Assembly (NCBI GenBank): GCA_030704615.1 | Contig: CM060732.1 | Span: 14,260,001 to 14,324,000, forward strand | From: Takakia lepidozioides | Taxonomy: Eukaryota > Plantae > Bryophyta | Direction of reading: 5' to 3' | DNA length: 64,000 nt | In this document: piece after piece, positions 27,411 to 64,000 of the stretch | How positions within the stretch are numbered: position 1 is the stretch's first letter | Layout: each line of letters opens with the position of its first letter | Position numbers and translations under genes: made by a program | The notes under the pieces: model-generated | Databases searched by the model: none | Told to the model about the DNA's origin: nothing | Seen by the model: only the letters and a program-made list of their open reading frames with translations

Positions 27411-27412
27411 TT

Positions 27413-39603: not shown

Positions 39604-39604
39604 A

Positions 39605-40190: not shown

Positions 40191-40823
40191 GTTAATCAGG
40201 TCGCAAAAATGCAAGTGCGTGCTATCTTGGCACCATCTCCTCATCCATCTCACTCTACTGTCATCCTGCTGGCTTGTGCATGGATTGCGGTTCAATCCAT
40301 CCGCATCCTGATTGACTAGACCGGGTCAATGTGCCACCTAAAAGAGCAGCTCCACACATGCACCACTTGCTTGGTCAACTATCCACCACAAAGTTCAGAC
40401 TACCAAGAGCATGAATAGCCAAGCATTGCCTCCCTCTCGTCATATTACATAGTTAGGGTGAAGCTATGCATACATTGAATGATGATCTCCCTTCAAGGAT
40501 TTCCCACCATATGTTCTCCAAGCCCTTCCAATGCCCTATGCTTGGCTCCACACCACCATGACTGGAAGATTTCTTCACATGCTCCCTTTCAAAACCTCTT
40601 GAGCTTCTTAGTGCTCTCCAAGTGCTTGCCCTTGTTGTCTTCAAGCCCAAGCCTATGTAGCTCTTGGCTTCTCTTCCACAACATCCACACTTTGAACTTG
40701 CTTAACCCTAGATTGATAGTGAAATGAGCACTAACAATCCTTTAGTTACTCTCCACAAGCCATGGCACACACCATTGACTCTATAATGCATACAAAAGAT
40801 TCTCAAACGGGAAGGTCAGATTA

Positions 40824-43186
40824 GACCCAGCGTAGCTACGGCGTGAGCCCAGCCCCGTGAGCTCGTGAGCTGCGCTCACGCTTTACCTACTAACCGTGAG
40901 CCTAGGCTCACACTTGCTAAGAGTGAGCGCATGGTTTAGCGTGTAGGAGAAGCAGGTCCTATTAGCCGAGGAGAAGGGCCTATTACCTTGGAAAATACCA
41001 ATATGAGCAAAAATAAATACACCAGAGCCATGTAACTAGTTGCATGAGATGTGGGCAGAAAAACATGACATACAATAAATGTAGATTGCAGAGAGCATGC
41101 ATTGACTTAAAAAAACATGAAAAAACATGTTTGGATGAGATTGAAGGCACCCACAAATGTTTGGGTGAAAGAAATAATGTGGCCTAGTTGTACTGAACAT
41201 CTGTAATAAGTAGCAATCTCCACAAGCTATAGGGACATGATCCCCAAGACTACATAAGATACTACTCAATATGTAGGTGAGTTGTCATGCTGTAGAAGAG
41301 TATCAACTTTGCTGAAACCAAGCATGGCCTGGTGAATGAACTGGTCTCTTTTGGGATCACAGTACATCATGTGCAGATATATGTAGTACAGATGCTTGCA
41401 AGGGACCCACCTCCCTCTCTTTCCAAGACTGTCCTCACGCATGCTTACAAAATTTGGAGAGGTGCAATCTGGAAAATTGCCCACCGTAACTTGATATGCT
41501 TTGTCATGAAGAACACAGCCTGAAGTGACCAATGTGTCCACTCAACCATAGCCACGAGGTGGAACTTCTATGATACCTGTCACCCGCGCCTGCATAATTC
41601 TTACTGACTTCATCTTGCAGTCGTGATCTGCACCTGAAAGAACAGGGTGCACTGTTTTTCCATTCCTTTTCGTGGAGTGTGAATTAGCCGGGCGGTAGGA
41701 GGCATTTGAGGAACATAAGGCAAAAATTCTGTCTGGGGCAGGTCCAGGCACCAGTACAGAACGTGCAAGATGAAACCCAACATCCTCCAACATGCTAATC
41801 TCTTTTGATGAGAGAGAGGTTCCCGACTTCATTGACCAAATGTTGGGTGCGAGAGGCTTCATTATGACATAGTCGCGTATCGTCCCATTCACGCATCGAG
41901 TCACATCATCTGGGCAGAACCAAAAATATGAACCTTGGACTCCTTTGTTCCATTCTGTCGGAACAACCCTATGAACGTAGGAGCAGGAGTGCCCCTAGAG
42001 CCTTTGGCTAACTTTGAGGTGCATTTGACAAAAGTAGTCGCGCAGATTGATGTACATCCCACTCTAGATCCAATTGCAGTGCGCTCTATGTGCCACTAAG
42101 AGTCACTGCATGAAGACTCATGCACAACGGACATCATGTCCTCCACCAAGCCTGGAACTGCAGCGGTTGGACGCAAATGAATGGGTTGACTGGAAGAGGA
42201 TCCACCAGCAGATGGTATTGTGTGCGGTGGACAGACTTGGAGGACAAAGAAGTAGTCTGATCTGTTGGGGCAGTGGGAATCTCCATCCAAACCAGGACTA
42301 GGCGTGTTGAGCTTTCGTTTGCACGAACCAAATCTCTCCTCACCTTTCAGATAGAGAATCCTAGATTGCAAAGGCAAACGCTCAGCGCATCTGTTCACCG
42401 TCCTTGCCATCTTTGTAGGATCCTCTGATCTGGTGGTGCAGCCCTCAACATCAATTCGGTGGTACAAGGTCCCTTACCTCCAAACCGCGCCCTCAGGAAA
42501 TCACGATACCTGGTTTGTTAGTGTTTGCCGGTGGAGGGGCAGTGGGATACAACACATGGGTAGCATGAACTATGTAATGTGGTATGTGGATGACCATGAT
42601 TTGAAATGTGTAATTCACATCAATTCGTTGGCTGTGCAATGATATGGCCTCCAACTATACGGAGTGAGGTCTGAGTGACAACTTTTAGGTAGTGCACATT
42701 TGTCATTGCACCGTTCGAAGTCTACATGTCTTGCTGTCGCTATGCACTACAATCATCTTTTGAAGATGATCATAACTCTCATTGTTATTTGAGGAGGGAG
42801 GAAGTCTTCTCGTGGCAGCCTTTATGGCGCACACTTTGTGAGGATATTTTGTCGTCTTCGTAATTGTAAAAGTGAAACAAGCATTTGTAATTGCACAATG
42901 TTGGATGCTGCAATTGTAGGCCTCAACGCTCGTCTTGATTCTATTTAGGCAAGATTCCCTGCATTAATTCCACGGTCATAGGACCATCCACGGTTATAGG
43001 CGGCGCATGTTAATGCTGACGTGGCAGTTGACGGACAGTGCCACGTCATCATTTACCGCCACATCAGCATGCTGACATGACGCTCACGCCACGTCAGCGT
43101 GTGTGCAGGCTCACGCCACGTCACTCCTGCGTGAGCGTACGCTCGCGCGCTCACGTGCAACGCTCACGCCATTGCGTCGTTGGGTC
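40824..43186 (-). mobile_element. Family D deletion derivative bounded by imperfect TIRs
   Basis: GACCCAGCGTAGCTACGGCGTGAGC versus reverse complement GACCCAACGACGCAATGGCGTGAGC, with CGTGAGC subterminal repeats. No TSD found. Confidence 0.55.
41266..42470 (-). pseudogene. C-terminal part of family D transposase with SWIM finger
   Basis: YQVTVGNFPDCTSPNF...VPCKHLYYIYL...FIHQ, plus VPPRGYG and WFC motifs shared with families A and B. Confidence 0.75.
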
Positions 43187-44581
43187 TGCTGGAAGTCTGT
43201 CTGTTGGGATATCAGTCTGTTGCACTTGTGAATTTGTCAGTCTGTTGTGTCGGAAGTCTGTTGTACTAAGTCTGTTTGACTTCTTATTTTCCCTCCGGTC
43301 AGTCTTTTGGCTTGTTCTCCCACCAGTCTGGCGAAACGTCCGTATGCTGGATAGTTCTCCTCTATGGATATCAGTCTGTTGGACTGTGCATGCATCAGTC
43401 TGTTGTGCCGCGAGTCTGTTTGCAATGGGTGTGTTCGACTTTCCTGTTCTCCCCTTATTCTCTTTTGTCTTCATTCCGCTGGCAAGGAAGTGCCTCCAAT
43501 ATGAAGCCGCTTTGCCTCAGCAAAGCGAATAGTCTGCTGGACTCTCGGCCCGATGGGAAATGAGTCTGCTACACTTGCGAGGACCGTGGATGAATTTAGT
43601 ATGATGCGATCGTTCGGTGGACGTATTCAATGCGATGACGGCGGATAGTTGGCGCCTGTGAAATCGCGCCACGTTGGCAGTGCCATGCCCGCTTTCCCCC
43701 TTCTACTTCTACTTTCTTCTCATGTTCCCTGTGCGATCGACTCCATTCTCTTCGCGCCTGTTTCTTCGCACAGTTTTGCATTGTTTTGTTTTCCTCTTTG
43801 CGTTTCCATCACCGTAACGAAAGACGACCATTCTTCCCCAGGTGTGGAGAGTCGCGGTGAGCCGCGAAGCGTCGCAAACACGCTCGCCTTCGTAACAACT
43901 CGAAGTTCATCGGTTCGGTGAGGTTCTCACTTGCTGCGGTGTTTCCATTCCATTCTGTGTCCTCTTCTTGCTTAGGGTGAGTCTTTTCATAGGACTTCTA
44001 TCTGTCGTTCTGTCGCTCATTGTCCTTGCACCTTCGTTTCATTCTGCAGCGATGGAGGATGCTCGTGAAAAGGGTGCAGCGGACTGGGTGGATTTTGTGC
44101 ACCAAACCAGACTAAAGAAGGAGTGAAGGTACTGGTACTCACCAGACGAGTTTGATCATAAAATAGTGGAAGCATTTGTAGACCTCCGCGCCCGGAAGCC
44201 CAAAAACTCGAATTGGCAGAAGGACAAGCTCTTCTGTCCCTTCTGTGAAGAGGTAATCAAGGACAAAATCCAACTAAATCAGCATTGTGTTGACACGGGT
44301 TGCAAGGGGGGCTGCTATTTCATGAGCGGCATGAGCATGAGTGGAAAAAAAAAAAGCATGAGCAGACCATTGTGAGTCCACGGAAATAGGGTTAGGAGGC
44401 ACGGAAATAGGGTCATGTGAAGTTGGAATGTGGCACCAGTGGACTTGAAATGCAACATTTTATTGCAAATTTTGTGGCAAGCCACGTCTATACAAGTGTG
44501 TTCTAACTGTCATAGTCGGAATGGGCACTACTCTCCTACACCCTCCGAGGAACTTGCCCCACCTTCTTCCTCACCCCCCCC

Positions 44582-47500
44582 TCATCCCTCGTCCTCCGAG
44601 CTCTGTGATGCATCAGTTCCACTATGCCTCTCAAAAATCCCGTCCTCTCCTTGGGGGACTGTCCACCTCACCTCCTGGGAATCTTCTGCGTCTTCTCCCC
44701 CACTTTCCTCAGCAGAATCCAACACAAATCTACGAGCCTGACGGGCTCTAATAGCTGCTGCCTCCTCCCTCATCTTCATTTTCTTGAGGCTTGCCTTGTC
44801 TAAAATCTGCTGTACACGACTACGTTCGGAACACCTCCTAATGGACACCGAAGCAAGCCGGGCAACATAAGTAGGAAGGATGTACTCCCTTTCTGGACTA
44901 GGCATGAAATCCCCCCTGGCAAAAAAAGGCACGTTCCTCCTGCCCATGAACTCCGGTGTAGACGTCCCTTCGGCAGTACTTGGCATCCTACAGTAAGAAC
45001 AAATCCACTTCAAGAATGTCAATACCAGCACAACCAGAAAGGGTTTTCAATGAAATAAGAGAGCGGAGGGAGGTGCCTCACAAAATCTGGAGGCAACTTA
45101 CAATGCCACCACTCACTCGTAAACCGGGGGCTCCTCGGGCTCGATCCCAACTTCCTCCCCCTGCTCCTTCTCGGATTTTTCCTCATCCTCCGAGGATGCC
45201 TCTTCCTCTTTCGGCAGACGTTCAGCAGTTGCAAGTTCCGAGTTGTGGAGGGCAGTATCTGGCTCGAAGGCGAACACATGCCTGTCGGACAACGTCCCTG
45301 CCCACATTGAAGCACCTAAGGAACAAAGCGGGCGGTTAATAGCTTGCGGCATGCAATTACAATCGGGCCAGGGGACAAACTGAGCACGTGAAGGCTTACC
45401 CGTGCCGCATGTGAGATCCAGAATCCGCCCTTGGACATCCGAGCACGTCTCCATGAGGGTTTGGATGAAAGCAGGGCTCCGGGTCCGGCTGTACCGCCAC
45501 GGTTTGCCTGTCTTTGTGTCCTTCGGCATACTGGAGTGGGGCACATAGTTGTAGAGGACATCGTAGGTTACAGGGTCCATAGCGGCATCAACAAGACGAC
45601 CGTTGTTGCGGAATTTGAACGTAGACCCTCTCTTCACAAAGCAATATGCCTCAAACACCAATGTCTGCACATCCAACAAAGAAGGGATCAACTCCAGGGT
45701 CTACTTAACATACACCACAATATGAGGTGAATGCAAAAGATTGATAACTTACACTTTGGCCCTCTGTTCGCAACCCCTGCGTACTGATGCATAACCATTT
45801 TCTGAGGAGGACCGGGGTGACACTTTTCGGTGTCCACCTTGCCACCGCAGTCTCTGTGGTCTTCCCTCTCGGGCAAGGACAACCACACATCCACCGTCAT
45901 CCAGAAGCATCCCCGCCAGCCCAAACCTGGCTTTCCAGTAGTCCTCAGTAAACCTGTTCCAGGTGGGCACACCATCCAGGCCCTCCAGCAGCTCCCCATC
46001 TGGAATGTCGAGGAGAATCATGTCGCAAGCTCTCTCCACCTCAACCCCCCCCCGAGTGCTCTTGCAATTCGTGCTCACAGCCGTGAAGAATTCCATCATA
46101 GCTTCAAAACCAGGGGTGTCTTTAGGCTCTGTACCGCCAGCCCTCTTCTTGGCTTTCCCCTTCTGCTCTGCCAGAGACTTGTTGTGTGCCACCTTCTTCG
46201 CCCTGGCAGCGAGAGCGTCAAGGAAGCTCTCATTGACGCATTGGATGATGGTTGGAGGTTCTAGCTTTGGCCTGTGCGTAAACGTCACCGCCGAATACCG
46301 CCGTGTAGGCTCGCCCTCAAATGCCAACTTCTTGGCAGAGCCAGTCCCACTCCGAACTGACTTGGGAACCCGGACGACGGTGACTGGGTAGGAGCAACAG
46401 CAGTCGCAGGACCTTGAACAAAGTCGTCGTCCGAGTCACTCTCTTGGGTCCCCTCCTGCGCCTCCTCCGATGCCCCGATGGTTTTCTTCTTTTTGGGTGT
46501 TACTGCACTCACCTGTTTCCTTGTCCTTTTCCTTTGGCCTTTACTCTTCTCATGCAATTTCTCCTGAATTCCTGCCTGAGCAAGCTCTGCCGCTTTCCTG
46601 GAGTTCGCAAGCGCTTTTGCCTCTTTTGCACCCAACGGAGGCAGCGGAGCCCGGTTTTGTCGGAATTCAGCATCCAGCTTCAATTGAAACTCGGATGGGT
46701 CGAGCGAGCCGGGCGGAAGGTCCACATACCAAGGGCAATCACGCAAATGTTCCAGATGCCACTCCTTCACAATATCGTCAGTGTACATGGAGTCAGCCCC
46801 AGGGTTCCTCCATGCCAGGAAGAATGGTGGCTCGAAAGACAATGACCTTTCTCCAAAAGGGAGAACTTGCAGTACCTGCATTCATAAAAAACACAATGAG
46901 GTCCCTGAAATGCATATTCGGCACCATTTTCCCAGGTTGGGGCGGATGTGAGTGGGCCTAGAAATGGAAAAATGGCGCCGAATTTCGGTTTTCGGTGACT
47001 GCCACCCTAGGGACTTAGCCATCTTGGGAGCCCTGAAATGGAAATTCGGCGCCATTTTTCCCGGTTTGGCCCGAAGATGGCTGTCCCAGAACCGCAATAG
47101 GGCCTAGAACTGGAAAAATGGCGCCGAATTTCCAGTTCAGGTCCAGCCACCCTAGGGACTTAGCCCGAAAATGGCTAAGTCCCTGAACGGCAATAGGGCC
47201 TGGAACTGGAAAATGGCGCCGAATTTCCAGTTCAGGGCCAGCCAGCCTAGGGACTTAGCCCGAAAATGGCTAAGTCCCTGAACGGCAATAGGGCCTGGAA
47301 CTGGAAAATGGCGCCGAATTTCCAGTTCAGGGCCAGCCAGTCTAGGGACTTAGCCCGAAAATGGCTAAGTCCCTGAACGGCAATAGGGCCTCGAACTGGA
47401 AAATGGCGCCGAATTCCCAGTTCCGGGCCAGCCACCCTAGGGACTTAGCCCGAAAATGGCTAAGTCCCTGAACGGCAATAGGGCCTGGAACTGGAAAATG

Positions 47501-50390
47501 GCGCCGAATTTCCAGTTCAGGGCCAGCCAGTCTAGGGACTTAGCCCGAAAATGGCCAAGTCCCTGAACGGCAATAGGGCCTACAACTGGAAAATGGCGCC
47601 GAATTTCCAGTTCAGGGCCAGCCAGTCTAGGGACTTAGCCATTTTCGGAGCCCTGACTGGAAATTCGGCGCCATTTTCCCTAACACCACATGAGGCCTCT
47701 AACATCCTGAAATGCAAGGACTTGAAAGAAAGGCAGCGCGTATGTACCTGTACAGAAGGGGCATTGCTGCTTTGTCCGCGTTCGGCTGGTCGGTGAACTC
47801 GTGGCTCCGGCGAGCATCTGCTATCTCCCAAAGAATAGGTTGGTTTTGTAGAGCAGAAAGTACCTCGTCACATAGTCACGTAGGCTCTCTGCTGCAGGAG
47901 ATATCTCCATCTTGAACTGATGTGCTTGTGTGTCCAGCTGCTCTTGTGCATTCGTCGTCACCTGTGGAGATTCTCCATCAGATCGCTTTCATGAAAAAAT
48001 ACAATGAATCCACCCCTACTAGAGTAGAAGCCCCAAACGAAGCGTGGGGAAGTACCTGAAACCACCATGTCATGCGGTTCATCCACATGTCGAATGTGGG
48101 GTCAGAGAGTTTGTCCGGTTTGGGGAAGCTCCACATGTCCCTGGTACTTTGGGAACCATTCCAGATTTGGAGCCACCGGGTCTGTCCAACCACCCAGCAT
48201 ATTCGTAAGCGCCAAACACCACAAAAAGGAGTTGTTGCCACCACAATTTGGTTAAGAATGTATCACCTTTTCTGTTGCATCCACACAGGATGTGGCTAGA
48301 CGATGGAGCTTCTCCAATGTCATCGTGGGCTTCAGAGCGCGAGAGTAGTGCTTCCCCACCTCCACCAGAAAGTCGGCACCAAGGGCGAGATCAGCTATGG
48401 CCACGTACTTTACCATCCGCGACTTGTACTTTATGCGGGCCCTCACCTCCGCAGCTTTGACATACGATTCGAGTTCCGGGAGGGTTGGATTCTTCTCCTC
48501 TGACTCCATGTAGAACCTCCGCGCATGTGCCAAATCCTGCTGTATTTTCGTCTGTCAAGAATGCGCACATAAGATTAGAGATCCTGCTCAACACAATTAT
48601 TCTATTGGGGGAGGAGATTAGAAATCACGGTGAAGACCCTTTTTCTATTGGGGGAGGAGAGACAGATTAGCTCAACAAAACTGTCAGGAGCTTTACCCGA
48701 AATATGTAGTCCACCATGGCGTCGACGCTCAGCCTATACCAGGTTCTGTCTGCCTTTGCCTCCGACTTGCGCAGGAGGTCGGCACTGAGGGAATTGGCAA
48801 ACTCTTGCACCCCTGCTTCCCAACATCCTTCACTCGGAAGAGCATATGGGACAAGTTGGTGGCAATGAAGGCATTCTCAGTCACCCTGCAGTGCCACATT
48901 TCCATCAAACAATACTCAAATGGGAATTTCCATCATATATGAGGATTTGCAATGAAATGACTTCCAAATTCAAAGTCCAAAAGCGAGAGGGGTTGTAGCT
49001 TACGAGTTGATGTCGGCCATTGCAGCTTTGAGAAGACTGCGATCTTTGGGCCCCGCAACCTTCAGCACAACACAATCCACGGCGAAATGCCAATCGAGGT
49101 CGTTGGGGTGGGCTTGGGCAATGTACTCCATCCATGCCAGGAGGTGATGATTGCCGTCCCACACGTAGAACATCTTACCGGACAAGTGCTGGAAAAGAGG
49201 ATCACTAGCAATCAATCTCTCGAACTCCTCATTTTGCGTTTGCCAATGGGACCCCATTTGTCCACCTCATCGGAAGTGTGGGCACGGGAAGCTCCGTGGT
49301 CGTTCTCAATGGAAACGTAAAATGCGGCAGACCCCATTCGATATCCATCCCGGAAAGAGAATTTCAGCTTGTCGATATCGCCTAGGAGGGCAGGTCTCAC
49401 CACCTGCAATGACACCAAGCGACAAAGGGGAATTCGAAGCTTGGCCGGGTACACCATGCCCCCCAGCACCCTACCAATGTTGCTGTGGGTTGCCTCCAAC
49501 ATCTTGGCAGCGGCCAACTTCATATCCGCCTCAGACATGACGTCTGCTGCAGAGGGGTTTTCCGGCAGCCCAGCAGGACCGCCAAATCCAGCCTGTATGC
49601 TCCGGGTTTGGGGCCTGGGGATGTCCGGGAGGATGTCATCCTGGTCAGAAAGCTCCCTGTCGTCCTCCTCAACAGGGTCAGCCACCTGCAAAACCACCTC
49701 CAGCACTCTCCCCGTCTCTACTGCCCTCTCCCTGGCTTCACCTCGAACTCGCACAATCCGTGCTCTTTCTGGTGTTCTTTCCTCTCCTCCACTCTCCACC
49801 GTATGGGTAATTGCAGGGGCTGCTCTTGCCCGCGATGGTCTAACCAGTGTGTTACTGCCTCTCTGTGGTGTCTTGGAAGGATCCACCGTCTCTGTGCGTC
49901 CCTCACTTACATTGGCATCTGTCATTTGGGCACCCCTGGCCTCTTCAGCTGCCTTTTCTCTTTCCTCCTGGCTAGCATTCTATCTCATCTGTTCTTTTGC
50001 CCTCTCTTTTGCCCTCTCACGGGCTTTCTGTTTCTTAGTAGGGCTAGCAGCAGGGGAGCCCTCCAGGACGACCACCTTTGATTGAGGCGAACTGACACCC
50101 TCTCGCGCACTGCTCACTCCCCCCTCCGCAGCCCGTGACGGCTCTCTCGCCGATGATTGCATGTGCTTAGCTTTCTTCTTTTTCTTTGCGTGGGCGGGCC
50201 CTACTGCATGTGCATGAACAACCTCCATTGCCGGATCTGCTGTCCTCATGTCCTCACGCCCTTCACATGCCATGCCGCCTGCACCAACCTCCCCAATGCC
50301 TATTCTGTCGTACTCTCGTTGCAAGTCCTCCCGTCCACCAACAAAAGGTTTAAGTTTGCCCTCTCGCCCCAAGTTGGGCGATTCAAACAT
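44582..50390 (-). CDS. Multi-exon ParB-like / beta-class amino-methyltransferase-like fusion gene (several 1-bp frameshifts as assembled)
   Basis: RIPLCRL...VVRP...FYVWDGNHH (49144-49440); CDMILLDIPDG (about 45995-46027); RSPAFIQTLMETCSDVQGRILDLTCGT|G-ASMWAGTLSDRHVFAFEPD after splicing 45399-45316. GT-AG introns include 45752-45665 and one starting at 49003. Confidence 0.7.
46900..47680. repeat. 95-bp tandem array in a cargo-gene intron
   Basis: CAATAGGGCC recurs at 47095, 47191, 47286, 47381, 47476 and 47571. Each unit has two palindromes (AACTGGAAAATGGCGCCGAATTTCCAGTT and AGGGACTTAGCC..GGCTAAGTCCCT). Confidence 0.92.
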
Positions 50391-51179
50391 GCGATGAGTT
50401 GGAGCTATCGATGATACTACCAGCGTGCCGGGCTCGTCGTCACTCTGTCATTGACAAAAATCGTGAAAACCAACATCAGTGCAAAAACCAGCATCGCAAC
50501 CACCATAGCAACAATCGTGTAGCAAAAATGAAAACATAACAAGTTTAGGAAGTATGGAGAGCCATGCAACAACAATGAAAACAAATGCAACCATTGCCTG
50601 AGAATGACATGCACAAGCAGCCTTCTCCAGAGCTGCCGGATTTGCACACGCATTGCAAACAATCTAAGGTTCACTCAACTATCTAAAGTTCACTCATCCA
50701 GCGAAGCCAGGATGAAGATGCAAAAACAAAGCGAGGTAACAAAGCGAAAGCAAAAAAGAAATCGAACAAACCGAAAGCAGAAGTGGCTTGCCTGAGAGTA
50801 CTCGACTTCAGTTGGCGCGGGTTGTGAGCAAGACACTGGAATCTCCTGCTGGAGCTTCAGTTTGGCCATGCGAGAGATTGGCCGTCGTCCGTAGTACAGA
50901 GCTTTCAACTTCCGCCGCGGTCTGGATGTGAGGTCTCTCTCAGGAGAGCCACGCCCTTCAGGCGGCATAAGTCCCAGCCAAAAATATCTCATTTTTTTGG
51001 GTACATGCCTCGAATAGCATGTTAAGCCAACATTAGCATGAGATTTAGGGTACGTATCCAGGAAGCCATGCGTCGCCAGCCCGATGGAAAACCGACGGCG
51101 GTCGACATTTATTGCCCAACTGCGCAATTAAATGTCGGATGAAGACCTCCATGTCGGATGAAAATCGACGTAAAGAGGC

Positions 51180-53060
51180 CCGGAATTTCCAACGTAGAGG
51201 TAATTCGGAGCGTTGCACGATGGAATTCCGGCGCCGGATTTCCATCCTGCAGGTAATTCGGAGCGCAGCAGGATGGAAATTCAGCGCCGAATTTCCATCC
51301 AGCAAGGTAGGGCGGCGCTGGAAATTTCCCTCAAGCAGGTAATTCAGAAGCGGATGGATGGAAATCCGGCGCCGGATTTCCATCCGCGCAAGTAGGGCGG
51401 CGCGCCAAATTCCCCTCACGCAAGTAATTCAGAAGCGGATGGATGGAAATCCGGCGCCGGATTTCCATCCGCAAGGTTGGGCGGAGAGCGGATGGATGGA
51501 GATCCGGCGCCGAATTTCCATCCTGCATGTAATTCGAATCCCGGATGGATGGAAATCCGGCGCCGCATTTCCATCCAGCAGGTAAGTGGAATCCCGGATG
51601 GATGGAAATTCGGCGCCGGATTTCCGTCCAGCAGGTAAGTGGAATCCCGGATGGATGGAAATTCGGCGCCGAATTTCCATCCTGCGGGTAATTCTGATCT
51701 CAGAATTACCTTCCTGCAGGTAATTCTGATCGATGTATTACCTTCCTGCAGGTAATTCTCATCTCGGAATTACCTTCCTGCAGGTAATTCTGAGCGAGGA
51801 ATTACCTTCCTACCTTCATCGATAAGAATTACCTGCAGGAAGGTAATTCTCAGCGATGAAATACCTGGCGAATGGAATTTCGGCGCCGAATATCCATACG
51901 CCAGCGATCCGACTTACTTGCTGGATGGAAATTCGGCGCCGAATTTCCATCCATCCGGATTCGAATTACCTGCAGGATGGAAATGCGGCGCCGGATTTCG
52001 ATCCATCCGGGATTTCACTTACCTGCTGGATGGAAATCCATCCGGGATTCGAATTACCTGCAGGATGGAAATGCGGCGCCGGATTTCGATCCATCCGGGA
52101 TTTCACTTACCTGCTGGATGGAAATTCGGCGCCGAATTTCCATCCATCCGGGATTCCACTTACCTGCTGGATGGAAATTCGGCGCCGAATTTCCATCCAT
52201 CCGGGATTCGAATTACCTGCAGGATGGAAATGCGGCGCCGGATTTCGATCCATCCGGGATTTCACTTACCTGCTGGATGGAAATTCGGCGCCGAATTTCC
52301 ATCCATCCGGAATTCGAATTACCTGCAGGATGGAAATGCGGCGCCGGATTTCGATCCATCCGGGATTTCACTTACCTGCTGGATGGAAATTCGGCGCCGA
52401 ATTTCCATCCGGGGGATGGTCTCTGTCGGAGAGGTGCCGGCCTCTCCGCCGCTCTGTTGGATATTCGGTGCCGAATTTCCGTCCGACGGTTGAAATATGA
52501 CGGCCAGTTGCCGACCTCTCCCCCCTCCCCGACTGCATTGGAACGGCCCCGGATTGAAATTCGGTGCCGTTTTCCCATTTGGGGAGGTTTTTATGTCGGC
52601 CAGTTTTCGGTCTGACCCCCCGACAAGACTTCCTTTGGGGGGGCACGGATGGAAATTCGGCGCCGAATCTCCATCCAGGGGATGCTCTCTGTCGAACACG
52701 TGCCGACCTCTACGCCCGAGGCGACTTCATCCGGGCGTCCCCTGTTCGATATTCGGTGCCGAATTTCCGTCCGGGGGTTGAAATGTGACGGCCAAGTGGC
52801 GGCCTCTCCCCCCTCCCCGACTGCATCTGAACCGCCCCGGATGGAAATTCGGCGCCGTTTTTCCATCTGGGGATGTTTTTATGCCGGCCAGTTTTCGGCC
52901 TGACCCCCCGACACGACTTCCTTTGGGGGGCCCGGATGGAAATTCGGCGCCGAATCTCCATCCAGGGGATGTTCTCTGTCGCACACGCGCCGACCTCTGC
53001 GCCCGAGGCGACTTCATCCTGGCTTCCCCTGTTGGATATTGGGTGCCGAATTTCCATTCG
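51180..53060. repeat. Palindrome arrays between the divergent genes (~53-bp units and ~270-290-bp higher-order units)
   Basis: Dozens of GGATGGAAATTCGGCGCCGAATTTCCATCC variants, arranged as inverted arms around GAATTACC(TTCC)TGCAGGTAATTC units at about 51700-51850. Confidence 0.92.
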
Positions 53061-53439
53061 GGGGTAGTAATGTGACGGCACGGTGCCGGCTTCTCCCCTT
53101 CAGCCGTCATCATCCGGACGGCCCCCCACTTTCTGACTGCATACCGTTGGCAGTTATTGCGCAAAGACCAGGGGCCGCATTCCGGAGACAAGGTTCATTA
53201 ACACTCTGACTATGGATTTTTGAGATAGTTGGCTCCCTGGATTTGGATCAGGCTTCGTCGCTCGGACAAATCGGCATCGCATTCATTCCCATTGCTGCAT
53301 CCCCCTTCTACCAGGGAGCTTCCCCGCACGCCATCCTGGCAGTCTTGTGTGCACATCTCCCATGGCGGAAAACCCGAGCGTACTGCCCTCCTCACGAGCA
53401 TAGAGCTTCATTTCCGTGCAGAGGGGACACCTGCCGGGT

Positions 53440-56400
53440 GATGGAGAAATATCTGTGCGTTCGATACCACCTGAAACCGGGGTCGGTTTTTTTGGAGGAG
53501 GAAAGGAAGGACTCTAACGGCCTTGTTGTCGAGAGTATTGTTGTGCTCCACGATGATTTCGGCGATGGCAGGGAATGGCGAGTTCCACCATCGGACAACG
53601 TCATATACAGGGCTGTTGGGGACTTCATTTGCCCGCCAAATGCACCTTCTATCCTGGCGCCTTCCACGAAACAATCCGCGAATCAGAGAGTGGCTACCTC
53701 AAAGAGAGAAGTCCGCAACGAAGTAAATCCAGAGCCGAACCCATCCATGAAGACGAGCAAGAACCGGGTTGTTCACAACCTGTCCGACTCAGACAAGGTC
53801 ATGGAAGTTCCGAGGTCGTCCTGGAGATCAGGCAAGTCCTCAATGGACGTCAGTGGAGGAGGGAGTCATATTCCCAGCACGAGCACCGCAGTTCGATCTA
53901 TTCTTGAAATTTTGCGAGGGCTTCACCTGGAGGGACACCGGTCGGAGCTGGCCGGGCTGGACTACAGCAAGTTCGCAATTAAATCGGTTACATGCCTTCC
54001 CGCCGACGTCGACGGTAATATCTTCTTTGAGTTCCCTCCTCGGGCGGACTACTCGAGGGCGTCGGAATGTTGACAGATATGGATAGAAAACATGACGGTC
54101 ATCCTTGGTGCGTTACCAAAACCACCAGCATGAAGATGCTCGATGGTGTGCGGGTGCACTATGTTGTTTGTGCGGGCGCGTTGCGGTGTTTCTCCCCAAC
54201 TTGCTTCCACTTTAAATCCAGAGGTCACAGGAACGAGACCGATTGGACAGGCACAGCTCATCAACCATTTCGAGCTCAGGAGAAGGTTCCGAACTCCACA
54301 TTTAAGTGTGCGCATTGCAAAGAACCACCACACTGCATGTCTGTTTGTAATGCCAAGCAGTTCTATGTGTTGCACCGTTTCCCTGACCTCACCCGAGCTT
54401 GCATACACGTTGGTTCCCATTGTCACAAATTGGCGAGGGGGAACTCGCGGGAGGCTGCCCACGAAGCAGAGCAGCTCGTTCAGGAGGAGGTTAAGTTGAG
54501 ACCGGGTGCCAAACCCAAACAGATACAGCTCCAAGCCGCCCATAAGATGGCATTGGCCAGAATTATGTCGGAAGACGGCTCCGATAGAGTTCCTCTCGAC
54601 GAGAAGGAAATGGAGGCATTGCTGGAGTCGGTGTCCCACGTATGTTCACCGAATGTCCGAAACCACATTGTCTCATGCAAACAGAAAATTGGGCGTGGCT
54701 CGGATATGCACTCCATTCTGGAGGTGAAGCGACGATGTGGATATGACTACATTCATGGAAGTAGGTTTCCAGGACAAGGGACTGAGGCAGATCGTTGTTT
54801 CGTATTCAAAATGTCCACGTGTGGACCTGGCAGCGGCGTCGAACTGGTCGACAGGATGACGAGTGGGAACTTGTCAAACAGTTGGGTCATGTTCGACCAT
54901 ATCAAGCGAATTACAAATCACCAGTGGGTGACAATGGGTGCACATGTCTACGACACCCACTGCAGGATGCTAATGACAATTGCTATTTGTGAGATGAAAG
55001 GAGAGGACACACAATCGGAGATGCTTCTTTGGCAGGGAATAAACGAACAGATGGCCAAGGCGGGATTGCCCCCTCCGAATTTCCGTGGTTTCATGGCGGA
55101 CAACGCACAAGCAAATTGGGCTGCCATCCGAAGGGTGTATGGGCAAGACCCCAATGTTCCCATGGAAGGCAAGGAGAGATCTTGTGGGTTCCATTTTCTG
55201 CAGAGCCTTTCGCAGTACACAACCAGGCTCGTGGCGCCAGATTTCAGAGAGGAGCACCGTTCCATGTGCCTTGCGTGGAAGCGCGCTCCCACCTTGGATG
55301 ATGCAGAGACACAGTTTGCATGCATACGGGCTTGGTGGACATCGTCAGGTGCTGTAAGGAAATCAGACGAGGGAGCAATGGTCAGTTGGCTAGCATGGTG
55401 GCATTATCGTTTCCTCCAGTTCGGCGACTATATGCGGGAGGTGAGTTGCACGAATTCGCGTCCCGTTGAATATTATTCTTGGCCATATTTGTAACTTGCT
55501 TGTAACCTGAACATGTGCTTGTGCAGGAAATGTGTCTCGACTCCGACACCGACATGCCCACGACAAACATGGCCGAATCAGTGCACTCTTCCTGGCGTGC
55601 CTCCTCTGCAGCGCATCTGGTGGACATCCTCACTGCCACAACGGAGGACATTGTGAGGTCAATTATGCAGCAATGCAGGTACAACGAGTTCTTGAAAGGG
55701 AAACAGTGGGGCTTGGGGCGGGACAGGCAGGAAATGCTGATGCGGACTGCCTCTAGATCGAAGAATCCTCGGAAGTGGGCGGCGGCCTTGCGAGAGGGCC
55801 TTCGGGACACGCCATTGCTGCGAAGAGGCCAACATTTGGAAGGAGATGTTCATACCCGTCCGGTGAGACGAAGACTTGACGAGGCACCTGGCGGAGAAGA
55901 GGATTCATGGCGAGCTGACAAGAATATTCGCACGCTCCCTCGTGGTCCGGTGATGTTGCCCGAGGAGGTCTCGTCGAGCACCGCAAGTCCTGCACGTTCA
56001 AGATCGCCATCTCCTTTGAGCACAGGGCGCGTGCCCCGGCAACATAATGAGCCATCTGTAGTAAAGCAGTACAACATTCCTATTGTGGAGGCAAGAGTGT
56101 CGGAGTCACAGTGGAGAATTGCAAGGACATTGCCGGCATTTCGAGGGAAGTGTTGCGCCATCCGGGTGGATACGAGAGCACGCTGTGGTGAGATGATTCG
56201 GAGGATCCCACACGGTGCTATACCTGCACCTTGTTTCAGCGGCAGATTTTTGACTCCCACATTTGCTCACGCCACAACTCAGACATTTTGGTTGTGTAGG
56301 CACGACATAATGACCTGTGTATTTGGCAAGCCCAAGTACGGGATTCAGCGAATGCCGGAGCCTCCGGGCGTCTGGCCTGTTGCACCGGGTTGCAGCCTCT

Positions 56401-56945
56401 CTCAGAATGAGGCGGATGCTCTATCTGCAGCAGGATTTCGAATGGTGCAACGCACAGACATCCCGGCCCATGCATTTCCGGTTCCTCAGACCCAGCCATT
56501 GCAGACTGCTCGGTCCAGTAGAGACGGATTGGACAATTTTGCACATCCCACAATGCAATTCGGAAGAGTGAAGAGACGACACCCTCCCAACAAGTTGAAT
56601 GAGACTCGGATTGCCAATGCTCTTGGGATGACTTGCACTATTCAGAGCTCCGTGGACGTACCCCCACCCGGCCTTGGGCGTGTGTATCGGATGGCAACGG
56701 CCGGCTCGGCTGTACGCGACGATGTATACACAATTACGATTGGAGTAGAACCGACTTGCAATTGTACGGACTTCTCGTTGATGGAAGCAAAGAAGGGTTC
56801 GAAGTATTATCCGTGCAAGCATCTGTATTACATTTACCTGAAGAGGTTGAGGATGAACGTGACTATTGATGACTTTATTCATGCACCGGCGTTGAGCGTG
56901 AACGAGCTGCACAAACTCCTCCTTAGGGATTCCAGAAATCATTGA
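53440..56945 (+). CDS. MULE transposase with GCM/WRKY-like zinc region, DDE core and SWIM finger (intron 55441-55526; 1-bp frameshift at about 54060)
   Basis: CAGALRC...CAHC...HVGSHCH; VMFDHIKR; FMADNA; CGFH; TNMAESVH; PTCNCTDF...PCKHLYY. GAG|GTGAGT donor and GCAG|GAA acceptor. Confidence 0.92.
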
Positions 56946-57099
56946 TGGGGCAAAGGGAATCCTCCATATGGATATTTTCAAATGCATTTTGCTGTATCAG
57001 ACTTTTTTTTGCAGTGTAATGAAATGCACCCCAAAACTCCTGGAATGAGGCAATATTCCATTCAAACTGAGATCCAACAGAAGCAGTTGTGGGCCATTT

Positions 57100-57610
57100 C
57101 TGGAAAAATGGCGCCGAATTTCTTTTTTTGGGGCCGAAAACTGGCTAAGTCCCAACATGCACTGGTACCTGTGTCTGGGAAAATGGCGCCGAATTTCTCT
57201 TTTTGGGGCCGAAAACTGGCTAAGCCCCAACATGCACTGGTACCTGTGTCTGGGAAAATGGCGCCGAATTTCTCTTTTTGGGGCCGAAAACTGGCTAAGC
57301 CCCAACATGCACTGGTACCGTGTCTGGAAAAATGGCGCCGAATTTCTCTTTTTTGGGCCGAAAACTGGCTAAGTCCCAACATGCACTGGTACAGTGTCTG
57401 GAAAATGGCGCCGAATTTCCCTATTTTGCGCCGAAAACTGGCTAAGTCCGAACATGCACTGGAAAAATGGCGCCGAATTACCTGTCATGAGGGGACCTAT
57501 AGCCGCGGAATTCGGCACCATTTTTCGCCAGAGAGACCTATTACCGCGAAATACGTCGCCGTTTTTTCAGGTTACGGACCCTATTACCGCGAAATTCGGC
57601 GCCATATTTG
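57100..57610. repeat. ~74-75-bp subterminal tandem repeats with GGCGCC core
   Basis: TGGCGCCGAATT at 57109, 57184, 57259, 57333, 57406 and 57468. Confidence 0.9.
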
Positions 57611-57851
57611 CACATGTCGCTGGGAATTGGCATGAGCGGAAGACGAAATATCATGAGCACAACTGTCAAAACTGCAATTTTCCCTTCAAGGGGCCGAATA
57701 ATATATTTGTTTTTCCTGACACACTGCATTAAATTATTATTTTTTATTGTTTTTTATTTTCGAAATTTGTACTTCTGCTCATGAAAACCGATTGTCTTAC
57801 TACTCTGCTCATGCCGCTCATGCCGCTCATGCTCATGAAATAGCAAACCTC

Positions 57852-60800
57852 GTTGCAAGGAGACTGTTGCAATGATTCCACAGGATTTCAAGCCTTGACC
57901 GATACTGAAAGAAATGTTGATTGTCAAAGAGACCACAATGCACTTGCGCGGATCAGTGCTTGACCCCCGCACTTTGGAATTAGACGAAGTGCGCGCACGG
58001 TATGGTGTCCATTGTGGTGGCCCGTCAATGGAGGATTTGCAAGTGCAGGGAACGCCGGACGCTCCCAGAAAACGTAAATTGAGTGATGGGGCCCAAAAAA
58101 AGGAGAGGCAAAAAAAGAAGAAGGCCGCAAGGTCTGCTCGCGAGGTAAGGGCAAAATCCACACAACAGACTGAACCCCGTCCTGGGCGGCAGACCCACAC
58201 CATCAGCACTGATACTGAAAGTGAATCTACTCAGGGCCTAGAAGGGGTGACAAGTCCAGTGGACATTGACTTGCCTGACCAGACTCGGCAGCAGACTCAC
58301 ACAAATATCGCGACCCATGCCATCGGTTTAGGGTCAAAACCAAAAACTCAATAGAGCACTGAAGGGCCAGTCTGCCCTGGCACATTGCGCCTCGTTGACT
58401 TTGGGCTTTTCCCACCAGAGTGCCCACCAATTGGGGATCCAGACTTCTTCCGTTATTTCTACAGAGTTGCCCAGTCAGGTCTGCTACGCACATTCATCCG
58501 ACAGGCGGAACAGAAGTGGTTGAACAGCTTTGAAGATGAAGATGACGATGATGAAGTAGAGGAGGTAATGGTCAGTCTGACCGCCCAGTCTGTTCTCTGT
58601 GCTGTTTGAGTCCATCATCGGGGTCACGTTGCCTATTCAGTCTGGTCAGTCCGCTGCGTTCTCTCCTCAGTCCGCTGGCTCACTCCGCTCGTCAGTTAGT
58701 CTGTTTTATATCGCTGCATTATTTACTGAGTCCGTTTGTCAGTCCGCTGGTCCAGTCCACTGGTATAGTCTACTGGTATAGTCTACTAGTTGCCTCCACC
58801 CTATGTACGCACGTTACAGTCTGCTAGTCTGTGAGTCCAGTCCGCTGCATGAGGTGAATATAGAGTCCACGTCCATGTTCCTGACGTCCAAGTTCTCTGT
58901 TGTGTACCAGGATGAACGTGTTTCTATTCGTAGGGCCATTCAGGCTTGGCGGATACCTAGCAATGATGCTCCTTTACAAGCGACTGCAGTGCATGCGGAA
59001 GTGGACCACGTGCGAGAGTACATATTATTGAAGTATCCTGGGTCATTTGCTGCTATAGCGGTATTACATATTCAAGACGCGTTGGGGGGGAATGCGTCTG
59101 AGACAGCCGAGTCTGCCATCCAGCAGACTCCCATTTAGTAGGCCGTCATCCAGTAGACTTCCGTTCAGCAGCCTGTCATCCAGCAGACTCCAACGGAGCA
59201 GACTCCCAACGAGCAGCCTGTCATCCTGCAGACTCCTCTCCAGGAGCCCATCATGCAGCCCATGCCAATGGGAAGTCCTGTCATCCAACAGACTGCGGAC
59301 CAGCAGACTGCCTTTCTCTCACATAGCACGGCGCTTTTAGCAGTTTGGCGATCGCCATCACCGGTAATTCGACCCGGAGCTAAAGACCTCACACTTCCCC
59401 GGCTTAGGGTGGGAGAAATTAATCCCCATTTGGATTGGCATAATGAGCTCCACCGGATTGTTGCAGACCGCCGGTGGTCATTTGTACCCTTTCATTATTC
59501 CATGGAGTTTTCTATTGAGAAAGCCAACCATGTTCTAGAAGCCGCCTCTGCTGTTGCCATTGAAGCCACAAACGACCAAAATGCGTCGCCTCTACTTGTG
59601 CAGCTGATTCTCATGGATGACCCACGGCCTGAAGACCTCAGACATATGCCTATGGCACATCCAACCTTTGGGTGCGAAGAAAGCACTTGTTCGGACTGAC
59701 TGAGGAGGACTTTGAGCGCATGGCAGCTTCCTTCCTACAACACAGATGGATGCAATTTGGCAATTTCCGCTCATACAACAAGTTGATGAAGGATCTGCAT
59801 AGTTTGAGGATGGACTTACTCCATGGAACAGACCATTCACAGAAGTTTGTGGTGGATCACGCATTGCACTGGTTTGCATTGGTGATGGAGCGAGCAGTAT
59901 TCGACATTGTTTTGCAGAATCCCAATGTCTTCAAAGTCCTGTGGTGTGGGATCTCAACTGAAGACCGCATCGGCGCCATTGCTCATCTCGATGGAGCATG
60001 GCTGTGCCGGCAAATCAAGGACATTGGCCTCATTGGAAATCTCTTGGAACCAGACTGCCCCTCAGCAAACTGTACAGCAGACCGTGCAGCAGACCGACGA
60101 ATCCAGCCAGCAGATTGCCCCTCAGCAGACTGTGCAGCACACTGGCGAACCCACTCAGTAGATGGCCGAGCAGACTATCCAGGAGACTAACAGCCAGTCT
60201 GTTTCCTGGATTGTGCAACAGACTCGGATGCACTGGCCTCACCGGGACCCTGTGGACGAATTTCTGCTGAGTTCCAACAACATGTTTTTGGATCTGCCAG
60301 TATGAGTGTTTTGACCGAGTCCACTTTTCCCCCAGGCACATTCACTGACGACATCATCAGGTCACCGGTAAAGCATTCTTATCCAGCTCCCCGTGGCCTG
60401 CCTTCTATGACCTTCCAGCTTAGTCCCGTTTTCGTGCGCTCAGTGGCGAAAGCCATAGATGAGTCTTACGTGATGACCGAACTCAATTTGGGAACACAAA
60501 ACTGTATCATAGATCTTACAGAAGAGTCTAAGGAAGCAATTGCCGGTGGGTCTTCCATACATGTTCTTGATGTTTCCCAAGTCCATGGAGATCCGAACAC
60601 CCAGCCGGCTGTCCACCAGACTGACCAGCACACTGAACAGTGGACACATGGAAGGACTGCCGAGCAACCTGTGGCGGGGCAGCATACTGTCTTCATTGAT
60701 GAGCAGACTGAACTGCAGACTAACCAGCAGACTGCACAGGTCACAGATGGAAGGACTGACCAGGATGGCTCGGAGCGGCAGACTGCACAGCTCAGCTCTG

Positions 60801-61990
60801 ACTGCACAGTTCAGATTGCACGGCCTGACCAGCACACTGCACACTTCACAGAGGGAAGGACTGACGACTAACCTGCCACCGAGCACATTGCCCACATTGA
60901 GGAAGAGACTGAACCGTAGAGTTGCCAGCAGACTGCACAGTTCATAGACGAAAGGACTGACGAAGAACCGGCGGCCGAGCAGACTGCCCACATTGAGCAA
61001 CAGACTGAACATGCTGGCAGACACACTGACAAGGAACCACATGTGGCGCAGACACTGTCTGGTATAGCGCTGGATTACATGGAGTTTGTTCCCTCACCCC
61101 TTGGGCAGGTTGTGTCATTTCCTCTTTCAGCACTGTTGTTTATGTTTTAGCACATTGTGAAATTGGGCTAATTCGACATTTTGCTCGGTATCCTCACAGG
61201 ATGTTCGTCCCTCCGTCGGCAGACTGTCTACTTCTGAGGATATGACATCTTCCGCCCATGCTGCAAACGTGGGATCGACAACCAAGAAAGGTGTGGGGGT
61301 GAGCACGCCCCCCGATGCGCGGGTCAGTTCTACGCATGCAACCCACGAAGCTGCAAAGACAGGTCCAGCAAGTGTAAACAAACCTGCTGACCAGCCTTTG
61401 TTGCGAAGTAGGGCAGCAGCACTGCGTTTGTCTGCTCTATCCAGCCCTCCTACAGCTGTCTCTGCTTCCCAGGGGAGAGGCAAAGCCAAGAAGCGGACTG
61501 TCGTGGACCATGCTGAGGAGGTTGAGGAGGGTCCAAGTACCAAGAGACCGGCGAAGAAAAAGTCTGGCGTCTTTATGAACAAGAACCGCAAGCTGGCCTT
61601 GGACATGGACAAAGATGTGGGTCGTTTCCTGGAGCAGCACAGGTGAGTACTATGCTCAGTCTCCTCGTCTGTCTTTGTCGTTAAGTGCTTTGCGCTCTGT
61701 TGTGGTCAGTCTACACGCTGGTCAGTCTGCTGCTGGTTTCATCATTGTCTGTTGTGGTTAGTCTTGTCAGTCTGATGAATTGTTCAGCCTGTAGAGTGTT
61801 TGGTACCATGTTGACGTCAGTCTGTTCAGTACATGAGGCTTCCCGAAGGATGGTCTGCTCTGTGCAGGATGGGTGCTCAGTTTGGCAAAGCACATGCTCT
61901 GCACGTGAAGGCGGGTAATTCCATGCTGATGTTTTTTGAAGGGGACCCACGGTTTGAATGTGAACTGTCGCCGGATGACATAAAGGCGCT
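57852..61990 (+). pseudogene. Unknown multi-exon gene of the host element (begins about 44051-44306, before the insertion), degenerate
   Basis: The reading frame continues across the TSD. It contains a CPFC...HC...C zinc-finger-like motif, Q/T-rich repeats and splice-like sites. No recognisable family. Confidence 0.45.
59100..59312 (+). repeat. ~30-bp tandem repeats (CATCCAGCAGACT...) encoding Q-rich peptides
   Basis: Repeated CAGCAGACTCC / GTCATCC units. Confidence 0.7.
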
Positions 61991-61992
61991 CC

Positions 61993-63931
61993 ATGGTCTT
62001 CGACGAGTGGTTGAACGGTATACCAGTTGCCTATATCCTATCCGCGAGGAATCGGACAAGAGACCTGGTTCCGTGGATGAGAGCCTTGCGCGATTCACTC
62101 CTCACAGATTTGCCGAGCTGGCGACCCAATGCCTCATTGTGGACGATGCCGAAGCAGAAATCAACGCTATTCGGTAAGTCTGTTGGTCCACAGCACCGGT
62201 CCATTGTCGAGGTCCACTGCAGCAGTCCATTGCTACAGTCCACTGGCAGACTCCTGTGGCGAAACCCAACGGTAGTTCGCTGGGCAAATCCACTGGTAGT
62301 CCGTTGTCAAGTCCGGTCATCAGTCCCCTGGCAGTCCCCGGCAAGTCCGCTTGGCAGTCCGCTGCCAAGTCCACTTAGCAGTCCGTGAGGTCGGCCATCC
62401 GCTGCCAAGTCCACTCGGCAGTCCCTGGCAAGTCCGCTCGGCAGTCCGATGTGGCAGTCCAATGGGGCAGTCCGCTGCCCCAGTCCTAGCTAGGGGAAGT
62501 CCAATGGGGAAGTCCACTGGGTAGTCCAATGGGGTTATTCCAGCACATCAACGTCATGGCATTGTACTGTCCACTGGGCGAGTCCAGTGGCTCTGCCCGC
62601 TGATACAGGTCGCTGTTACAGTCCACTCCGGCAGTCCACCATTGCAGTCCGATCCCAAGACTCTAATGTGTACCATGTGTGTTGTGCAGAATTATTTTTG
62701 AAGGAGTACTCATTTTCCTCTGCCTTTGGCATGTCCGCAAGGCATGGGTGAAGCAATCATGCAAGAAAACGAAGGATCCGGTGACCGCTATAAACTTGTT
62801 GAAGGATATGGGAGACCTCATGTACTGTAGAGGGGGACCACGCAACGAGAAAAGAGCGCTTCGGTGGGTTGCAAGGAGAATCCGTCGTATGAGGTCAAAA
62901 TACCCGAAAGGACATGAATTTCTTGACTATATCGAACAGTACTGGAAGCCCAAAATAGCAATGTGGTGTACAGCAGCCTGCCATGTCCCTCATGCTAGCC
63001 AAGACACAAACGCAAGTATTGAGGCATACCATGGAAATCTGAAGGCAAGACTTGTCATGGGGAAAGGCAAGATGAGCGGTCGTAGAGTGGACTGGCTTAT
63101 ATGGGAACTCACTGGCCGTGTACTAACACACTATTGATACGCAATCCATTTGAAGACCCATGGGTTCATAAGAAATGACAAACACGAAAAGTACATATCC
63201 AGTTCTATATTTGCGGCACGAGACATTCCTGCTGAGAGTGTTACTCTTCCCTTGGGTCCTGGTGAACCAGCCTACGTTCTCAGCAGCAACCACCCCGGCA
63301 CAACATACATTGTTGCGATTGGGGTTGTTGCACGTGCCCATGGGCAATGAAGGGAAACTTATGCAAGCATCGGGTCCGTGTCCTGAAGATGCTTCACCCT
63401 GACCTGCAGGATGGCCTCTTTATGCGCGCTTGTGGCACGGCGCTAAGAACCATTCATGGAGGATTACCTAACTTGCTCTTGGGCAATGGTGCCAGTGGCA
63501 ACAACGAATCCAATCAATTCATGGAAAGACATCCTCCGGACAACTTCCCCTACGACGAGGCACCTTTGGAGGTCTCAGCCTCAATGGAACAAGAATTCGC
63601 GGACATACTTTGCATTGTAGGTGATGACAAATACTTGGAGGCACATGCCCGATGTGCTCTTCATATGTGCAGAGGGCAGCTCGTTGATATCCTGGCGAAA
63701 AGTGCGGCTAGAATGTTGCACCCTGCAGCAGCGAAGGCTTTCCGTCCTCTGAACGACAACAACAACATGTCTCTAAAAAGGAGACGAGATTTTGTGGAGG
63801 CCTGGAAAGCCCGGCCTAGGGTTTTGTGGAGAACCAGCAAGAGGGTGTCTGCACCTGCACCTGCAGCACATATATACTCGAAAATTTGCAAGGTTTCAGG
63901 TCGTGTAGATGTCACGAAGAAGACAATATAA
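61993..63931 (+). pseudogene. MULE/SWIM transposase, family E (5'-truncated, frameshifted; intron about 62174-62689)
   Basis: FDEWLNGIPVAYI...WRPNA..VDDAEAEINAIR|IIF...LCLWHVRKAW...DTNASIEAYHGNLK...RRVDWLI and CTCPWAMKGNLCKH (SWIM). Confidence 0.85.
62190..62655. repeat. Intronic CAGTCC/AAGTCC-rich degenerate repeat
   Basis: Dozens of AGTCC motifs spaced about 12-13 bp apart. Confidence 0.75.
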
Positions 63932-64000
63932 GTCTGCAATGCCTCGAAAAGAGACAAGGTTTCACGTCGTGTGGGTGTCACGGAGAAGACAATATAAGTC

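Follow-up and report, generated by a model that had tools for sequence, protein, structure and literature searches.

The 64-kb window analysed here, a 64,000-nucleotide stretch of the genome of the moss Takakia lepidozioides, contains a 20-bp palindrome amplified in tandem arrays within what we call a Mutator-like DNA transposon. We put the probability at about 0.5 that these palindromes are parS-like docking sites for the element's own accessory protein, predicted to combine a ParB fold with a methylase fold, which would coat the element and counter its silencing. The element offers a candidate site of defined sequence, 20 bp long, together with a rule for its spacing and a variant from a sister family, which makes the idea of a self-reading ParB protein directly testable by EMSA.

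Allowing up to three mismatches, GAAATTCGGCGCCGAATTTC matched 54 times in the 64-kb window, seven times exactly, against a mean of 0.01 matches in 100 shuffles; the interval 51180-53060 accounts for 24 of the 54. The observation of a first-pass annotation, that one palindrome is amplified in several non-coding arrays, is confirmed by these counts. The palindrome consists of A/T-tract arms flanking a GC core, and within the window it is confined to pieces of this transposon and of sister elements. In the complete element (13,545 bp, 44307-57851), which carries all three array blocks, a looser site definition, tuned on the arrays themselves, gave 43 sites: 10 in an intron, 25 intergenic and 8 subterminal. 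The remaining 9,840 bp of the element contained no site by the looser definition and no match to the fixed pattern (up to three mismatches to GAAATTCGGCGCCGAATTTC), in agreement with the earlier statement that the motif is essentially absent from coding exons; the palindrome is also absent from the left 2.5 kb of the element. In the intronic and subterminal palindromes, which are half-degenerate, one arm reads GAAAAAT or GGAAAAT.

The intronic block lies in a GT-AG intron of the accessory gene (46876-47747, minus strand, 872 bp), with 10 half-degenerate palindromes centred at 46922-47669 and 95-bp tandem repeats spanning 47069-47640. The intergenic block comprises a 53/85-bp array (51177-52410, 18 sites, with the repeat units at 51183-52410), whose two halves are inverted around a 32-bp sub-array, and a 96-bp array (52454-53098, 7 sites) in which 3 x 96 bp make up a 288-bp higher-order unit. 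The subterminal block (57099-57610, 8 sites) consists of 75-bp repeats at 57099-57462 and three further sites. The measured units of 95, 53/85, 96 (288) and 75 bp match the 95, ~53, ~280 and ~75 bp first reported, the ~280-bp repeat being the 288-bp higher-order unit. Elsewhere in the window are a partly deleted second copy of the intergenic arrays (12175-13641), the 95-bp intronic array again, inverted, within a rearranged fragment (38684-39198), and a sister-family array (23547-24165), which lies downstream of a fragment of the sister accessory gene (20.6-23.4 kb, plus strand). The sister array contains 10 GAAATGCGGCGCCGCATTTC variants separated by unrelated spacers, this family having its own arm variant of the palindrome.

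Between arrays, identity is 0.57-0.92 within the 20-mer versus 0.18-0.39, near background, in the flanks. The earlier description of the units as otherwise different in sequence holds for these flanks but not for three shared features: a second box, CCGAAAA(C)TGGCTAAGTCCC, is common to the 95-bp and 75-bp units (p=0.003) and partly present in one 96-bp unit, the first 14 bp of one 96-bp unit recur in the 75-bp unit (p=0.003), and an extended 30-bp palindrome is common to the 53-bp and 96-bp units. Because the second short box is shared, the arrays are not fully independent, and the proposal of independent amplification in three arrays, correct in that they are differently built, was overstated. 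The tandem units are young repeats (85-95% identical), and since they also share the second box, part of the array spread is copying within the element. Tandem amplification, by slippage or unequal exchange, is likely how the sites multiplied. The second box, in the form CCGAAAA(C)TGGC(TAAGTCCC), was found at 47175-47637, 52598, 52886 and 57145-57442, mostly either 42 bp ahead of the palindrome centre or 33 bp past it (~4 and ~3 turns); it could represent a half-site or be bound by a second protein.

As first proposed, the intergenic block is a large inverted structure with hairpin-capable sequence: the segments 51494-51694 and 52410-52210 can pair at 90.5%, with exact inverted arms of up to 56 bp. 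If transcribed, the block is predicted to fold back on itself as a long hairpin that includes an uninterrupted helix of 90 bp, as would suit a block serving mainly as a source of hairpin RNA and siRNA; RdDM targets overlap VANC target repeats, according to the available text of PMC10398659. Any palindromic unit, however, appears inverted by construction, the block sits between divergent genes, and a siRNA source leaves the intronic, subterminal and sister arrays and the phasing described below unexplained; we regard this explanation as extremely improbable. RNA-like contigs leave the block almost uncovered, an observation that carries no weight either way. At the symmetry centre of the block, the 32-bp sub-array (51671-51870) has GAATTACC...GGTAATTC arms and lacks the GGCGCC core.

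The sites in this window are spaced at whole helical turns. Within the element, 37 of 40 consecutive spacings fall within 2 bp of whole multiples of 10.55 bp; the smallest is 45 bp, and most correspond to 5-9 turns. For the main element and the sister array together, 23 spacing events gave a best period of 10.55 bp (P = 1e-4), under a null in which each spacing was jittered by up to 5 bp and the same period search (10.2-10.8 bp) was allowed. The main element alone, with 14 distinct spacing classes, gave P = 0.002, a post hoc value in that the pattern was first noticed in the repeat periods. Counting each distinct spacing value once gave P = 0.004. The non-tandem 10-site sister array, whose spacers are mutually unrelated, gave P = 0.0014 over 9 spacings, measured after the idea had been formed. 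A control of 13 motif-free repeat periods showed no significant phasing (P = 0.48), nor did 16 collapsed spacings from decayed metagenome relatives (P = 0.41), in which the tandem period is 51 bp. Nucleosome and curvature signals likewise have a 10.5-bp period, and with A/T tracts around a GC core the phased arms might bend DNA or set the positions of nucleosomes, or the motif might be bound by a host factor. Nucleosome positioning or bending, however, needs neither an exact 20-bp palindrome nor a family-specific variant, and the restriction of the motif in the window to pieces of these elements argues against both this and a host factor; we hold this group of explanations to be highly improbable.

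The host element is flanked by an 8-bp target-site duplication, GTTGCAAG (44299-44306 and 57852-57859, plus strand). Its terminal inverted repeats are short and imperfect (~20 bp) and are accompanied by CATGAGC repeats: the left end (44307-44365, plus strand) carries GGGGGCTGCTATTTCATGAGC and CATGAGC repeats, and the right end (57631-57851, minus strand) CATGAGC repeats and a terminal GAGGTTTGCTATTTCATGAGC. An empty site was found in contigs of the public runs X5 and X8, which join 44298 to 57852 and skip 13,553 bp, corresponding to the element plus one duplication copy. Since each of the two runs has a contig without the insertion, the copy at 44307-57851 is likely polymorphic.

The transposase gene (53210-56945, plus strand), whose reading frame has a frameshift near 54062, encodes an N-terminal Cys/His zinc domain, a DDE-type core and a C-terminal SWIM-like finger, and has 62 homologues. 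In an alignment of 32 proteins, the Cys/His pattern and the DH, MAD and CxxH motifs are conserved; we take the latter three to be a MULE-type DDE core, and the N-terminal domain is presumably WRKY-GCM1-like. The SWIM match (E 0.006, 16.6 bits) lies under the Pfam cut-off of 19.6, none of the 32 family members gave a Pfam MULE match, so that the core domain is unnamed by Pfam, and a PDB sequence search with the transposase and ParB families returned nothing informative. MULE transposases combine a zinc domain, used for DNA binding, with a SWIM finger (PMC1702500), and Aedes MULEs have target-site duplications of 8-9 bp (PMC5225508). Because the architecture and the 8-bp duplication fit, we call the element a Mutator-like DNA transposon, an assignment made from these two features and without Pfam support. 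Sola1 elements have a 4-bp target-site duplication, and a Sola-type assignment was dropped on the 8-bp length.

The window also contains several further fragments, both of this family and of the sister family. Other Mutator-like transposase remnants with SWIM-like fingers, possibly truncated, lie at 57900-64000 and 39600-42500, and no palindrome array was seen with them. Two open reading frames on the minus strand, related to each other and without a Pfam match, may represent a third accessory gene carried by these elements: one (24398-25249) follows the sister palindrome array, and the other (36992-37609) is situated between a left element end at ~36696 and a lone palindrome at 37936. A 500-N assembly gap (10788-11287) separates two element copies, and the copy at 11.3-15.4 kb has many small indels.

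Binding of the palindromes by the N-terminal zinc domain of the transposase, for end pairing or transcriptional self-activation, would be in keeping with the conservation of this domain, a type that MULE transposases use to bind DNA (PMC1702500), with the sequence-specific activation of cognate copies by the AtMu1 transposase (available text of bioRxiv 10.64898/2026.08.24.746577), and with the subterminal position of one array. Both ends of the element, however, carry a different repeat, CATGAGC, likely the site of the transposase, since such sites usually lie at the element ends, the left 2.5 kb are free of the palindrome, and in relatives the sites cluster near the ParB gene. We therefore consider binding by the transposase unlikely, and the first two of these features favour the accessory protein as the binder. 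Genetic linkage cannot identify the binder, because the transposase and accessory genes travel together.

The accessory gene (44585-50450, minus strand) is spliced, was delineated by tblastn using homologues from Ceratodon, Adiantum and Riccia, and lies head-to-head with the transposase gene. Its predicted layout is a low-complexity N-terminus, a ParB/Srx-fold domain, a helical region and a beta-class N6/N4 DNA-methylase-like domain, and homologues with a named source belong to a fern, a liverwort and a moss. The gene is frameshifted in this copy; at several of the break points, other copies carry an additional base. Three of its GT-AG introns are spliced in one run, whose RNA type is a guess, among them the 872-bp intron containing the 95-bp array, which one contig splices out. 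The spliced contigs differ in sequence from this copy and hence likely derive from another copy of the gene; no spliced joints of the sister accessory gene were listed among the run contigs.

The ParB/Srx-like domain (49006-49445, minus strand), with the motif VWDGNH, was assigned from structural matches of homologue models, and the ParB piece has 258 relatives at E <= 0.001. For a ParB-family homologue model with a pLDDT of 90, all 12 VIA-align matches were ParB/Srx-fold proteins, headed by PadC and KorB, the best being of moderate quality (Z 7.5, rmsd 2.9, 95 aligned residues). Across the homologue models, best Z values were 7.5 and 8.0 with rmsd 2.6-2.9, and all leading matches had the ParB/Srx fold. 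Foldseek reached E 0.02 at best, and Pfam named the domain at a useful E in 0 of 43 members; the ParB/Srx fold of the accessory protein is accordingly given here as a prediction from models. The arginine patch of ParB (GERRxR) is cut down to GNHR, which is nearly invariant in relatives and reads GNHH in this copy, the later arginines being absent. The helical middle region is predicted at a pLDDT of 70-85, without a clear helix-turn-helix match, and a Pfam scan of 49 open reading frames in the window found no ParA-type family. A search for phage relatives of the ParB part found none, giving two weak matches to the methylase end only. For residues 225-740 of the Ceratodon homologue P0164, an Atlas feature search placed fungal DUF3723 clusters first (0.95-0.96). 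Papers on Starship elements mention DUF3723, which, as a lead only, might represent a remote ParB-like accessory protein in fungal giant elements.

The methylase assignment comes through homologues. P0164 (1147 aa) matches PF01555 above the cut-off (E 4.9e-7), with motif IV preceding motif I, and both this and the Adiantum homologues align along the window accessory gene by tblastn. The window's own exon pieces had no Pfam match and are tied to the PF01555 homologues by tblastn; a homologue search with the methylase exon, itself a weak search, returned no match, and a PDB sequence search gave just a weak DpnA-type match (E 0.053). The region of the SAM-binding motif is retained (DLTCGTG). Active beta-class N4/N6 methyltransferases have (D/N/S)PP(Y/F) as motif IV, and this canonical motif is missing from both window families, in which the corresponding position (45998-46009, minus strand, in the complete element) reads DIPD, without PP or an aromatic residue; three relatives have DIPE, DLPT and DFPI, and Ceratodon has DTPF. 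Because motif IV reads DIPD rather than the canonical form, methyltransferase catalysis by the accessory protein appears doubtful.

The accessory protein might nevertheless bind the sites as an active amino-methyltransferase and write 4mC or 6mA on its own element, a function proposed for an Ectocarpus protein (available text of PMC12477816). The PF01555 match and DTPF motif of the Ceratodon homologue and the retained DLTCGTG are compatible with this, and a beta-class 4mC enzyme of Marchantia is active (bioRxiv 2021.02.12.428880). The Marchantia enzymes, however, have TSPPY (bioRxiv 2021.02.12.428880), and here the DTPF form is found solely in Ceratodon, against DIPD in the window families and DIPE, DLPT or DFPI in the three relatives, so that we judge self-methylation quite unlikely. 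We favour a binding role: the protein called cargo in the first-pass annotation is, from the models, a predicted ParB/Srx-fold and N6/N4 methylase-fold protein and a natural candidate binder of the palindromes.

Relatives were taken as the best 80 of 168 metagenome loci and collapsed to 45 groups. They align to the window element over ~30-140 bp of the ParB exon only, their other non-coding DNA being unaligned, and their ParB pieces are ~35-60% identical to that of the window. An unbiased palindrome search of these best 80 of 168 loci returned the CpG- and CCG-decayed ACTTTCGGCGCCGAAAGT, in which a 12-bp core, TTCGGCGCCGAA, is identical to that of the window motif. Among the same 80 of 168 loci, ACTTTCGGCGCCGAAAGT has 74 sites versus 0.75 in shuffles, a contrast that is partly built in, the pattern having come from these loci; 71 of the 74 are located either up to 2 kb upstream of the ParB exon start or 1-3 kb downstream from it. 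At least three sites are present in 11 of the 45 groups (best 80 of 168 loci). These 11 are 63-86% identical to each other in pieces and, being related, count as roughly one lineage. Upstream sequence of 5 kb was available for 19 of the 45 groups; a homologous transposase lies upstream on the opposite strand in 6 of the 45, and the shared motif is missing from 3 of these 6 (best 80 of 168 loci). In one relative nearer to the Ceratodon protein (L003:1-200), another palindrome, TTGGGTCGNNCGACCCAA, occurs in six copies at 32-35-bp spacing upstream of the ParB gene.

From these comparisons, the 12-bp core is conserved in distant relatives, while their other non-coding DNA does not align to the element. 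Selection for binding sites is supported, since only the motif is conserved between arrays, the spacings are phased and the core is kept in relatives. The earlier interpretation, selection for protein-binding sites rather than slippage, stands in its first half on the same evidence; slippage is not an alternative to selection, because tandem amplification remains the likely route by which the sites multiplied. The arrays could instead be neutral by-products of slippage and gene conversion acting on a palindrome-prone seed, for which the young tandem units and the shared second box would speak. This appears largely refuted by comparative sequence evidence, because the motif has outlasted spacers that diverged to background, the sister array is phased despite unrelated spacers, and the core is retained in distant relatives; we rate neutrality as very unlikely.

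The CpG observed/expected ratio is 1.15 for the intergenic block, compared with 0.63-0.84 for the genes of the element and 0.32 for a nearby LTR element, a comparison confounded by age. Between window copies, deamination-type differences affect 5 of 55 motif CpGs versus 41 of 361 other CpGs (P = 0.82). Because motif CpGs decay like the others, the window copies were likely methylated and the palindromes without special protection. The palindromes of the relatives also show heavy CpG decay; dead copies therefore do not keep whatever protection their motif CpGs may have had. The LTR retrotransposon (26342-36529; LTRs 92.6% identical, with a gag match and a 10-bp internal LTR repeat) is strongly CpG-depleted, at the 0.32 given above.

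In the mechanism that we propose, a symmetric dimer of the ParB-fold protein would read the two-fold palindrome, and spacings of mostly 5-9 turns would align the bound dimers along the same side of the helix and so favour cooperative loading, so that tandem duplications would be retained when they keep the helical phase. Bacterial ParB clamps load at and spread from parS (PMC7053999), and the loaded protein would perhaps spread in a similar manner over the divergent promoters. The methylase fold, lacking the canonical motif, would more probably serve in DNA binding or in shielding CG/CCG-rich sites than in methylation. The selected outcome would be a family-specific, VANC-like anti-silencing. 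A broader version, that transposons of seed-free land plants carry a parS/ParB system of their own in which a nucleotide-gated clamp spreads from phased palindromes and a dead methylase fold blocks host 5mC silencing, with the core conserved and the arms family-specific, is offered tentatively, as a conceivable extension. If the transposon's ParB protein does read its own palindromes, plant chromatin would host a clamp-loading mechanism of prokaryotic type, from which a sequence-specific anti-silencing tool could be derived.

Compared with bacterial ParB/parS, Noc/NBS and KorB, the system shares a ParB/Srx N-terminal fold, predicted here, and multi-copy palindromic sites (PMC7053999, available text). 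It differs in its eukaryotic spliced gene and reduced arginine patch, no ParA was seen among the 49 open reading frames scanned, and the helical region gave no clear helix-turn-helix match; a role in segregation is unlikely. The resemblance to Arabidopsis VANDAL elements, for which anti-silencing by VANC has been demonstrated and motifs accumulate in introns, intergenic and terminal regions (PMC5735166), extends to a MULE with short or degenerate ends and to family-specific motifs amplified by tandem repeats (PMC5735166, PMC10398659), here in non-coding regions only. As far as the available text of these reports goes, the VANDAL motifs are 8-9-bp non-palindromic words, whereas here a 20-bp palindrome at helical phase accompanies a ParB/methylase-fold protein for which an anti-silencing function is suggested by analogy.

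The closest designs are algal. In the brown alga Ectocarpus, Sola1-1_Ec32 encodes a protein of ~1100 aa with ParB-like and N4/N6 methyltransferase domains on the strand opposite to the transposase, proposed, as a proposal only, to bind and modify its own element (PMC12477816). By that description, the domain pair in one protein and the opposite strand are common to both, but the Ectocarpus element has a Sola1 transposase, whereas the present one is of a land-plant, Mutator-like type with an 8-bp duplication and an eroded catalytic motif, and the accessible Ectocarpus account names no binding site. The Plavaka elements of the red alga Bostrychia encode a ParB-like protein, PAG3, for which adjacent tandem inverted-repeat arrays have been proposed, again as a proposal only, as binding sites (bioRxiv 10.1101/2025.02.11.637652). 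PAG2/PAG3 and the Takakia element have in common a ParB-like accessory protein, adjoining tandem arrays and a PF01555 methylase in the element; in Plavaka, in contrast, ParB forms a fusion with a 2OG oxygenase, a gene of its own encodes the methylase, fused to SET, the transposase is of the EnSpm type, and the available text does not mention phasing of sites. Our literature search found algal and general papers only and no land-plant ParB-methylase transposon, although the supplements of the algal papers may list some. The ParB-carrying transposon design with self-binding is thus already known as a proposal for brown- and red-algal elements (available text of PMC12477816 and bioRxiv 10.1101/2025.02.11.637652); what this analysis adds is a candidate site of defined sequence, statistics on its phasing and a 12-bp core that relatives conserve.
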